Assembly (NCBI GenBank): GCA_000165345.1
Contig: CM000434.1
Coordinates: 160,001-224,000 of the forward strand
Direction: 5' to 3'
DNA length: 64,000 nt
Shown here in pieces: positions 38,786 to 41,479 of the stretch (positions within the stretch are counted from its first letter, which is position 1; the number at the start of each line of letters is the position of its first letter). A program made the translations under genes and the position numbers. Under the pieces are notes generated by a model. The model was not told the DNA's origin. It saw nothing but the letters and a program-made list of their open reading frames with translations, and ran no database searches.

Positions 38786-39670
38786 TCAATTACGTGATCT
38801 ACCTAACAACAATATAAATAGTATTACTAGTAATCCAACAGCCAGTCCAGAAGATGTACCTAAAATGATATTAAACTTGTTATCAGATGAAATTGTACAG
38901 TTTCTACCATAAAATCCTTCTGCACATTTACAATAATATCCATCGTTGCCTATATTAAAACATTCACCACTATTCTGGCATATTGGTTCTAACTGAGTAT
39001 CACAAATTCCCTCGCATCCTGAACATTCCACAACCTGTCTTAACTGATTAGATGACGGACATGCAGTACCTCCATTCATTGCCTCCCTCACAACTACTCT
39101 ATATCTTGATTTGGTTCCCTCGCATAAAAACTTTGAGCAACCAGTCCAAGGAGACCAAAAAGAGAGAACACAATCGACTGGGCATGGAGAAGAATTACAT
39201 GAAGATGTTTCTTTAAGCAAAGAATCACAACCAGGAGCAGAGTGGGTCAATTCTCTTGTCCTGATTGTAAGCCCTCCGTCACAAGAAGCTGAGCAAGGAG
39301 ACCAACTTCCCCAATCAGTGAATCCACATGGCAAACACTCCACATCCGAATTACAAGCAGAAATCTGGGAAGTTATAGTACATTCTAATCCTCCTGCCAT
39401 AACCTCATTTAATGGATATCTCCATCTATAAGTTGTTCCACCATTGCAAGTACTTGTACAAGGAAGCCAAGATGACCATTGAGAATACTCACAATCCAAT
39501 GTAGATATTGCAAATCTTGTAGTTGAATACACTCCTGCTTCATTTGGATAAATTAATCCTACTGATTCTGGTTTATATGAGTGCACTCCACAATGAAATA
39601 TGGTTCCCAATGACCATAATGACTCTCTTACAAAAACGTCAACTCCGAACTTTTTGTTAATCAATATCGA
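38786..39670 (-). CDS. TSP1-EGF adhesin gene A, exon 2: 3 thrombospondin type 1 repeats, 1 EGF domain, a TM helix and a short tail
   Basis: TSP1 motifs: YSQWSSWLPCTSTCNGGTTYRWR, FTDWGSWSPCSASCDGGLTIRTR and SFWSPWTGCSKFLCEGTKSRYR. EGF: CDTQLEPICQNSGECFNIGNDGYYCKCAEGFYGRNC. TM: LAVGLLVILFILLLG. The listed ORF starts on a TTG codon with no upstream ATG before a stop, consistent with being a downstream exon. Confidence 0.6.
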   Translation of the reverse strand, partial: SILINKKFGVDVFVRESLWSLGTIFHCGVHSYKPESVGLIYPNEAGVYSTTRFAISTLDCEYSQWSSWLPCTSTCNGGTTYRWRYPLNEVMAGGLECTITSQISACNSDVECLPCGFTDWGSWSPCSASCDGGLTIRTRELTHSAPGCDSLLKETSSCNSSPCPVDCVLSFWSPWTGCSKFLCEGTKSRYRVVVREAMNGGTACPSSNQLRQVVECSGCEGICDTQLEPICQNSGECFNIGNDGYYCKCAEGFYGRNCTISSDNKFNIILGTSSGLAVGLLVILFILLLGRSRN

Positions 39671-39896
39671 CTATAAAGATGAGAGAAGAAAAAATATAAA
39701 AAGTTAATCAATTTTGAAATGTTAAAATTCTTATTAAGATCATTTTCCAAGCCTATCATGCTTCTTCCTTTTTCTTCCTCTCTCTCTCTCTCTCTCTCTC
39801 TCTCTCTCTCTCTCTCTCTCTCTCTCTCTCTCTCTCTCTCTCTCTCCCTACCTCAATAAATAGGCTTATTATCTTAATAATCATAAGTAAACTTAC
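39671..39896 (-). other. Predicted intron (~226 nt) of TSP1-EGF adhesin gene A, containing a (TC)34 microsatellite
   Basis: The donor is GTAAGTTTAC at 39896. The acceptor has a polypyrimidine tract plus AG (TTTTTTCTTCTCTCATCTTTATAG) ending at 39671. Both exons are phase 0 and the downstream ORF lacks an ATG and a signal peptide. The 90 nt between the two listed ORFs contain no GT, so no separate upstream exon fits. Confidence 0.5.
39779..39846. repeat. (TC)34 / (GA)34 dinucleotide microsatellite
   Basis: Perfect tctc... run of 68 nt. In the naive ORF it would encode an (ER)n tail, but it sits after a consensus splice donor, so it is most likely intronic. Confidence 0.9.
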
Positions 39897-40889
39897 ATTG
39901 AAAGGTTGACCTGGATTATCAAAATCAAAAGGATAATCTCCACTAACTGTATAACTTGTACCACTTAATAATACACCCGAACTTAAACAATATGAATTAC
40001 TTGACAAAGTTGCAAAAAATCCATTCATTCTATAATAAAACTGACTCTGATCGCTTGTAAATACTGCTACTGTACCTCCCCATCCGTATCTTTTATCATT
40101 AACTGGATACATACTTGCTGAATGTAGATGTATTTCTAGTTCTTCTGGCCAAGATTTATAATTTTTTGGAATTCTATCACCATTTGGTACTCCAGATTTC
40201 TCATCAATTCCGGTACTATTTACATAATACAAATTTTTATCATCAAAATAGTATCTTTGTTGAAATTCATCCCAGAAATAAGTCCTTCTATAAGGATCTG
40301 CCAAAGGAACATTTCTTGTAATTTTATATTTACTAAAGTTATTTTGTCCATTACCAAAAGTTAATTTATTCACATTTGAATACACTATGCTATGACAAGG
40401 ATAATATGGTCCACTTCCTGAAATATAAAAGTAAAACCCTCCTGGCCATCTTAATTTCTCAACTACCAAGTCAAGATCCATCAATTTTGGCTTATACGGA
40501 AATGGAAAGTAAGCATAAGATCTAGCCCATCTCTCTTCTGAAGTATATCCTGTAGATTCCACATCTACTGTTTGTGCTGCAAAATTTATCATCAACTTAC
40601 AGTGGTATAAATCACCATTCTGAATTGTTACCAAAGTTTCTTTATCATTTTCTGCGTTAAATTTACCCACAATCCTAAAAGATACTCCAGAATACCAAGG
40701 TAGCTTATTTGAACTAAATGTATATACTAACCCTTCACTGGTAATATCTTTCCATGCTTTTGTCCAACTGAAACTTGGTGGTAAAGAATTTATTTCTAAA
40801 ATATTAAATATAAGAATATGTATTAATATAAAATATAAAATTCTTCTTATTTTCATAAACTTTAAATCATATTGTCTAAATTCTAACAT
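39897..40889 (-). CDS. TSP1-EGF adhesin gene A, exon 1: signal peptide plus a ~330-aa N-terminal extracellular domain
   Basis: The ORF-track start at 40901 is a TTG; the first ATGs in frame are at 40889 and 40856. The signal peptide is MKIRRILYFILIHILIFNILEINS. The exon ends ...DNPGQPFN immediately before GTAAGT, a consensus 5' splice donor. Coordinates +/-2. Confidence 0.55.
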
Positions 40890-41479
40890 TTTTCTTTTCA
40901 ACTTTGTTTTGATTACATTGAATTAAAACCTTTTATTGGTGTTTTGAAACTAATTAAAATTAATTCTTCTTTCCATTCATGAATTATTCAATCCTTATTT
41001 ATAGCCAATACTTTTACTTAATTTAAAAGAATACACCAAATGTGATATTATTCAGCAACCTTTAAAAAATATAATTTTATTAATAATATAATTTTAAATT
41101 TAATACTTTTCTCTGTGTGTGTAATTTATCCTATTATCAACTCCTTTTCCCATGTTCAATTTAGATTAATATTTATTTCAATATTAAACAGCAGGTAATA
41201 GGTACCATTTCAGCCCGCCAAAACATGCCCCACTTATTTCCAATATTATTATCAATGCTGTATAAGTAATATAAATAATATAATAAGAATAAATATAAAT
41301 ATGATCCATGTAATAATATATTAGATAAATTAAAATTTATCTATAATTTACCATTATTTTAGTTAAATTAATAATTTATTAGAATTTGTGAAGGATAATA
41401 AATATTAATCCATCGAAATAAGCTTTATGTTTTAATTACAATTATCCAGAATTAAGGTTTAATAAAGAATTCATGCTCA

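Follow-up and report, generated by a model that had tools for sequence, protein, structure and literature searches.

Among the closest described counterparts of the locus treated here are the adhesins of the TRAP/MIC2 type, such as Plasmodium TRAP, Toxoplasma MIC2 and Cryptosporidium parvum TRAP-C1, in which an acidic cytoplasmic stretch and a subterminal tryptophan couple the adhesin to the motor. The present analysis concerns a stretch of 64,000 nucleotides (nt) from C. parvum chromosome 6 (GenBank assembly GCA_000165345.1, contig CM000434.1, positions 160,001 to 224,000 of the forward strand; hereafter the window), with a G+C content of 26.8%. It leaves us nearly certain that two neighbouring open reading frames (ORFs) on the minus strand are the two exons of one annotated microneme adhesin gene, CpTSP8/CpMIC1 (cgd6_780). 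CpTSP8 shares with the TRAP/MIC2-type adhesins a signal peptide, TSP1 repeats, a single transmembrane helix, expression in invasive stages and storage in micronemes, the last being known for CpTSP8 from the literature only. Unlike them, it has neither a vWA/I domain nor an acidic tail with a subterminal tryptophan, and carries instead an EGF domain and an apparently genus-specific N-terminal region of about 350 amino acids (aa). The gene itself is already known, as an annotated and studied vaccine-candidate adhesin, and biologically it is nothing new. In the literature, cgd6_780 corresponds to Q5CXK1 with 625 aa (PMC13095730), is treated as micronemal (PMC8710574; PMC13095730), is listed as highly expressed in oocysts and sporozoites and as a candidate rhomboid substrate (PMC13095730), while an in vivo CRISPR screen reports TSP8/MIC1 as 'high fitness conferring' and TSP11 as dispensable (PMC12368253).

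The gene is made up of the following three parts, with positions counted from the first letter of the window:

39897..40889, minus strand: exon 1 coding sequence, aa 1-331 of the 625-aa model (from the sequence; identical to XP_627453.1)
39671..39896, minus strand: intron of 226 nt, spliceosomal type, phase 0, GTAAGT...polypyrimidine tract...ATAG (from the sequence; position and phase shared by five other species)
38786..39670, minus strand: exon 2 coding sequence, aa 332-625 and the TGA stop (from the sequence; identical to XP_627453.1)

Joining the two exons gives a coding sequence of 1878 nt with no internal stop, and its 625-aa product is identical at 625 of 625 residues, with full coverage, to the CpTSP8 reference XP_627453.1 (= EAK90179.1, UniProt Q5CXK1; P0001). 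The two are therefore the same gene, with no difference except for the start codon, on which the public models disagree (625 or 614 aa). A first-pass annotation of the window, made from the letters alone, had proposed that the two ORFs form one spliced gene with a donor at 39896 and an acceptor at 39671 in phase 0, and the borders are found exactly there. The donor GTAAGT occupies 39896-39891, right after ...GQPFN (AAT = 39899-39897); the acceptor tract TTTTTTCTTCTCTCATCTTTATAG, pyrimidine-rich before its AG, terminates at 39671; and exon 2 opens at 39670 with TCG ATA TTG ATT AAC AAA AAG TTC (SILINKKF). Some 40 nt ahead of this AG stands a putative branch-point sequence, TGATTAAC. Since the intron length of 226 nt equals 1 modulo 3, the two ORFs stand in different frames; the acceptor's own TAG is a stop in the exon-2 frame, which thus opens precisely at 39670. 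Mechanical ORF calling returns 38786..39664 (minus strand, 292 aa) and 39756..40901 (minus strand, 381 aa), each beginning with TTG, and the former lacks both an ATG and a signal peptide.

The fit of frames by itself is weak evidence for a splice, since 224 GT..AG pairs in the region mechanically keep one ORF open. The decisive evidence is the identity with the reference protein together with the presence of a conserved intron in the orthologues. In addition, several public coding-sequence entries, among them AAC16621.3 (614 aa) and AAM48586.1 (338 aa), are spliced at the GTAAGT/ATAG junction, an indirect support. From these comparative and database lines we infer that the intron is removed from the mRNA. 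The case also shows that a correct eukaryotic splice can be read from raw sequence, as the junction proposed in this way gives the reference protein residue for residue.

For the comparison among species, the orthologous loci were fetched and the introns were located from the DNA. In all six species, C. parvum included, the conserved QPF(N/S/T) is followed directly by one phase-0 intron that opens with the donor GTAAGT, closes with the acceptor AG and has the following lengths:

C. parvum (window): 226 nt
C. canis: 173 nt
C. felis: 88 nt
C. bovis: 65 nt
C. serpentis: 121 nt (gene annotated with two further upstream introns)
Further Cryptosporidium assembly: 145 nt

Not one of these six lengths is a multiple of three. 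Compared with C. parvum, the flanking 200 nt of exon on each side have a nucleotide identity of 0.67-0.81, against 0.26-0.46 in the intron, and a protein alignment of five species shows no gap at the junction and a continuous conservation across it. The read-through tails of exon 1 are mutually unrelated; four of the five other species reach an early stop, and the tail of C. felis continues out of frame into exon 2. Against C. hominis (P0014), the spliced C. parvum protein is identical at 611 of 625 residues (98%) without gaps. The published identity between the two species is 86.9%, put down to a frameshift, and this lower figure probably stems from a comparison of unequal gene models.

The two further introns annotated in C. 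serpentis (L004) both lie in the exon-1 region and are in phase 0, at 3208-3289 (82 nt) and 3374-3457 (84 nt), with donors GTAAGT and GTTAGT; they are seen in the annotated model only. Exon 1 is undivided in C. parvum and in the other four annotated orthologues, so that, if the annotation is right, the introns would have been lost in other lineages or gained in C. serpentis.

The intron holds a long dinucleotide repeat, and the repeat and the primer sites around it are located as follows:

39778..39846, strand not assigned: perfect repeat, (CT)34.5 on the plus strand and (GA)n in the transcript (Tandem Repeats Finder)
39877..39900, minus strand: ML2 forward primer site, across the exon 1/intron junction (CAAT/GTAAGT...); a single exact match where chance would give 0
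39668..39688, plus strand: ML2 reverse primer site, across the intron/exon 2 junction (...TATAG/TCG); one exact match

This repeat is the ML2 subtyping microsatellite of C. parvum and C. hominis, known from GenBank AF344880 on chromosome VI with an AG repeat motif (PMC4746124) and amplified with the primers CAATGTAAGTTTACTTATGATTAT and CGACTATAAAGATGAGAGAAG (PMC2725800; PMC4746124). The ML2 amplicon of the window (39668-39900) has 233 bp and is allele ML2-233, which a Spanish study lists among the common cattle alleles. On the whole, ML2 alleles measure between 180 bp (C. hominis) and 239 bp and differ in steps of 2 bp (PMC4746124; PMC2725800), with zoonotic C. parvum alleles at 223-239 as against the C. 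hominis-type ML2-180. As ML2 is the intron of CpTSP8, it is non-coding, which fits the 2-bp ladder of alleles, and its repeat length would vary among isolates without a change in the protein. The typing paper PMC4746124 places all its markers in coding regions, whereas ML2 is here intronic with its primers on the splice junctions, and 'coding' is true only in the sense of lying within a gene. No statement placing ML2 in the CpTSP8 intron was found in a limited literature search, and it is worth recording for practice that this widely used typing marker is the intron of CpTSP8 with a primer on each of its splice junctions. The first-pass annotation had already seen a (TC)34 repeat in the intron and an (ER)n tail in the naive ORF. 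The repeat counts 34.5 copies, and the 381-aa ORF indeed runs on into GRERER...KKKEEA*, encoded by the GA repeat, up to a stop at 39758-39756.

Among the sequences examined, the GA repeat occurs only in C. parvum and C. hominis-type sequences, and the hypervariable (GA)n tract accounts for some 30% of the single intron of CpTSP8. It is conceivable, although we consider it quite improbable, that its length tunes splicing efficiency or intron retention and hence the dosage of CpTSP8; in that event ML2 would count as a functional polymorphism and not as a neutral marker. Long ML2 alleles are associated with farm-animal contact (PMC2725800), an association most simply explained by lineage structure. 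As for the C. hominis-type contig (L005 3961-4075, Logan ERR14760746_4477), it stops inside the GA repeat, showing that short-read assemblies break at ML2. The same contig has, upstream of the repeat, a 2-nt insertion relative to the window (TTATTATGAGG vs TTATTGAGG), by which the read-through tail becomes ...LFIMR*, as in XP_666911.1.

Sporozoite proteomics speaks for one spliced gene, as an exon-1 N-glycopeptide, YYFDDKNLYYVNSTGIDEK, and an exon-2 C-mannosylated TSR peptide, from TSR3, are both assigned to Q5CXK1 (PMC10034466). Several points weigh against reading the two ORFs as one spliced gene. No peptide spanning the junction of the exons was seen; the tryptic peptide over this junction would be 50 residues long (MNGFF...PFNSILINK, aa 288-337), with the junction sequence ...NPGQPFNSILINKKF, and its detection is therefore unlikely. 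Moreover, the orthologous proteins are annotation products (even though the intron signals in the orthologue DNA were checked independently), and conflicting models persist in the public databases, namely a 347-aa exon-1 read-through, 338-aa partials and one model with shifted non-canonical borders. Such truncated or mis-spliced public models (292, 338 and 347 aa) can distort cross-species comparisons.

Among the alternatives, the one that survives best keeps the spliced gene and adds a regulated retention of its intron, by which a soluble, exon-1-only lectin-like isoform would be made without the TSP1 repeats and the transmembrane helix; we give it a slim chance. Translation into a retained intron would add 50 codons before a stop in this sequence and 16 in the C. 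hominis-type sequence, and at 226 nt the intron exceeds those of the orthologues examined, which measure 65-173 nt. However, retention has no positive support, the read-through tails are not conserved, and the exon-1 product would be without the 57 conserved residues that close the N-terminal region.

Two independent genes, one for a secreted protein of about 380 aa with an (ER)n tail and a separate one for a TSP1-EGF-transmembrane protein starting from the TTG at 39664, have a probability that we put close to nil. Mechanical ORF calling yields exactly this split, prokaryote-style callers divide public assemblies in the same manner (P0021-P0023, 292 aa; P0005/P0025, 347 aa), and the gene calls of L006 (3001-4065 and 4181-5029) do likewise. 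Yet the second ORF would encode extracellular cysteine-rich modules with neither an ATG nor a signal peptide, while the (ER)n tail is absent in four other species with early-stopping tails, is replaced by the ending ...LFIMR* in the C. hominis type, and is encoded by a marker whose alleles shift in 2-bp steps; furthermore, the spacer between the ORFs is flanked by GTAAGT and AG in six of six species. The junction of the older chromosome-6 annotation CAD98627.1 (...PFNVSLLNKKF...), a model present in public databases (P0017), is practically negligible in probability and is rejected for its non-canonical borders and broken conserved residues, for it needs the 226-nt intron moved by 10-13 nt to borders such as TT..GA or AT..TT with no GT-AG, replaces by VSLL the SILI that aligns with S/G/A/V-I/V-L-I/V in all orthologues, and stands against four other public entries that use GTAAGT/ATAG.

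The product of the spliced gene is a type I membrane glycoprotein, whose parts are located on the window as follows:

40785..40856, minus strand: probable signal peptide, aa 12-35, MKIRRILYFILIHILIFNILEINS (judged from the letters and the orthologue alignment)
40305..40742, minus strand: predicted beta-sandwich, aa ~50-195 (AlphaFold2; block pLDDT, the model's per-residue confidence, mostly 47-87)
39023..39499, minus strand: three TSP1 repeats, aa ~389-547 (Pfam PF19028 1e-25 and PF00090 5e-16, three stretches each)
38894..39016, minus strand: EGF-like domain, aa ~550-590 (Pfam PF00008 2.3e-6, 28.2 bits vs a cut-off of 21.5 bits)
38801..38869, minus strand: transmembrane helix, aa ~599-621 (hydrophobic stretch read from the sequence; transmembrane 599-621 in PMC13095730)

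The start of the protein is at one of two candidate ATG codons, at 40889 (625-aa model) or at 40856 (614-aa model P0015 = aa 12-625). The ORF start given earlier at 40901 is a TTG and an artefact of mechanical ORF calling, as the public models begin at one or the other ATG. Both models lead to one and the same mature protein, provided that the signal peptide is cut off before LPPSF. Conservation among orthologues starts directly after the signal peptide, at SLPPSF. Each TSP1 repeat has a WxxW that is invariant in the orthologue alignment (W396/W399, W451/W454 and W503/W506, respectively). The protein ends in ...LFILLLGRSRN, with a cytoplasmic tail of about 5 residues, GRSRN (RSRN by the 599-621 prediction), and the tails of the orthologues are equally short (NRSHS, SRSRS, NRS or NRT). 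The modules that the first-pass annotation had assigned to the downstream ORF, three TSP1 repeats, an EGF and a transmembrane helix behind a TTG with no ATG and no signal peptide, are borne out by Pfam and by the sequence. Its division of the protein between the exons stands as far as the two exons are concerned and fails at the border: exon 2 holds 57 conserved residues before the first TSP1 repeat (aa 332-388), and the intron thus falls within the N-terminal region and not where this meets the TSP1 repeats. Likewise, of a domain said to be rich in tyrosine and glycine, the mature part of exon 1 is enriched in tyrosine (9.1%), while its glycine is ordinary (7.4%). Some 300 residues of the exon-1 ORF, besides its hydrophobic signal-like stretch, are rich in aromatic residues.

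The N-terminal region (aa 36-388) has no recognised relative outside the genus. Pfam gives no match in the first 388 residues of the 625-aa protein, and when exon 1 is compared by phmmer with 1.84 billion representative proteins, the matches are the cluster of Cryptosporidium orthologues and one bacterial repeat protein, nothing else. The latter (P0026, E 3.8e-6) is rejected as a homologue and regarded as a match of motif and composition, since it covers only a motif of about 27 residues (fragment residues 263-289, with GTSYTVSGDYPFDF) that is found in each of the 8 repeats of P0026. Judged by sequence, this region of about 350 aa is genus-specific.

To see whether aa 332-388 complete the exon-1 fold, the full protein was modelled with AlphaFold2 from an alignment of five orthologues. 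The model is too poor for this, with a mean pLDDT of 39.6 and values below 50 over aa 195-473. Within it, the beta-sandwich of aa ~50-195 matches galectin-2 in a Foldseek search of the PDB (E 1.2e-5, target TM score 0.68) and many other galectins at 0.65-0.69, on a model of low confidence; the matches also include neurexin LNS domains and T. gondii M2AP (8j67_B). Taken as a lead only, and with low to moderate confidence, the modelled aa ~50-195 may be a galectin/ConA-like lectin module. Compared with the Toxoplasma M2AP and galectin domains, the likeness is that the model of this part of CpTSP8 superposes on galectins, while the differences are a sequence identity of 8-18%, no Pfam match and the mean pLDDT given above. 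The C-terminal domain of Toxoplasma MIC1 is galectin-like as well.

In the mechanism that we propose, the single GT-AG intron (226 nt) would be removed from the pre-mRNA and exon 1 joined to exon 2. Exon 1 would provide the signal peptide and most of the genus-specific N-terminal region, and exon 2 the last 57 residues of that region, the three TSP1 repeats, one EGF domain, the transmembrane helix and a tail of about 5 residues. CpTSP8, which according to the literature is stored in micronemes, would then be released onto the apical surface at invasion, where the TSP1 repeats, to judge from the TSP1 family, and the N-terminal region may bind host ligands. The earlier description of a coherent single-pass adhesin is borne out for the architecture and agrees with the literature on the micronemal TSP family; adhesion itself is likely by analogy. 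No vWA/I domain is matched by Pfam in CpTSP8 at E up to 1, and without this domain and without an acidic tail bearing tryptophan, CpTSP8 probably does not engage the gliding motor on its own; it may work together with a partner, or a rhomboid protease may shed it.

Around CpTSP8, the neighbouring genes in the window are as follows:

32331-35303, minus strand: CpRom1 (cgd6_760), an ORF of 990 aa in which Pfam sees a rhomboid domain (2.9e-25); the length equals that of CpRom1, 990 aa
37262-38038, minus strand: 258-aa ORF with an ATG start, presumably cgd6_770, between CpRom1 and CpTSP8
41480-42930, plus strand: CpTSP9 (cgd6_800) candidate, TSP1/EGF gene model of 457 aa, divergent and upstream of CpTSP8

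The 258-aa ORF is rich in glutamine, asparagine and cysteine with CxC and CC motifs, has no match in a Pfam search, and has ORFs of similar size (242-295 aa) in the same place in C. canis, C. felis and C. bovis. CpTSP9 repeats the pattern seen in CpTSP8: the mechanical ORF at 41803-42930 opens at a TTG and has no signal peptide, while a 77-nt GTAAGT...TAG intron (41611-41687) and the ATG at 41480 give 457 aa with a signal peptide. This candidate model is the sole solution of a constrained search, and its agreement with the annotated length of CpTSP9/cgd6_800, 457 aa (PMC13095730), is one of length. The same gene order is found around the CpTSP8 orthologues in four other species (L001-L004). 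CpRom1 is located about 3.5 kb downstream of CpTSP8 with one gene between them, and a rhomboid gene is present at the same relative position in C. felis and C. serpentis (L002 and L004, respectively). A membrane protease of the adhesin-cleaving class is thus placed in conserved synteny with two candidate substrates of the TSP1-transmembrane type.

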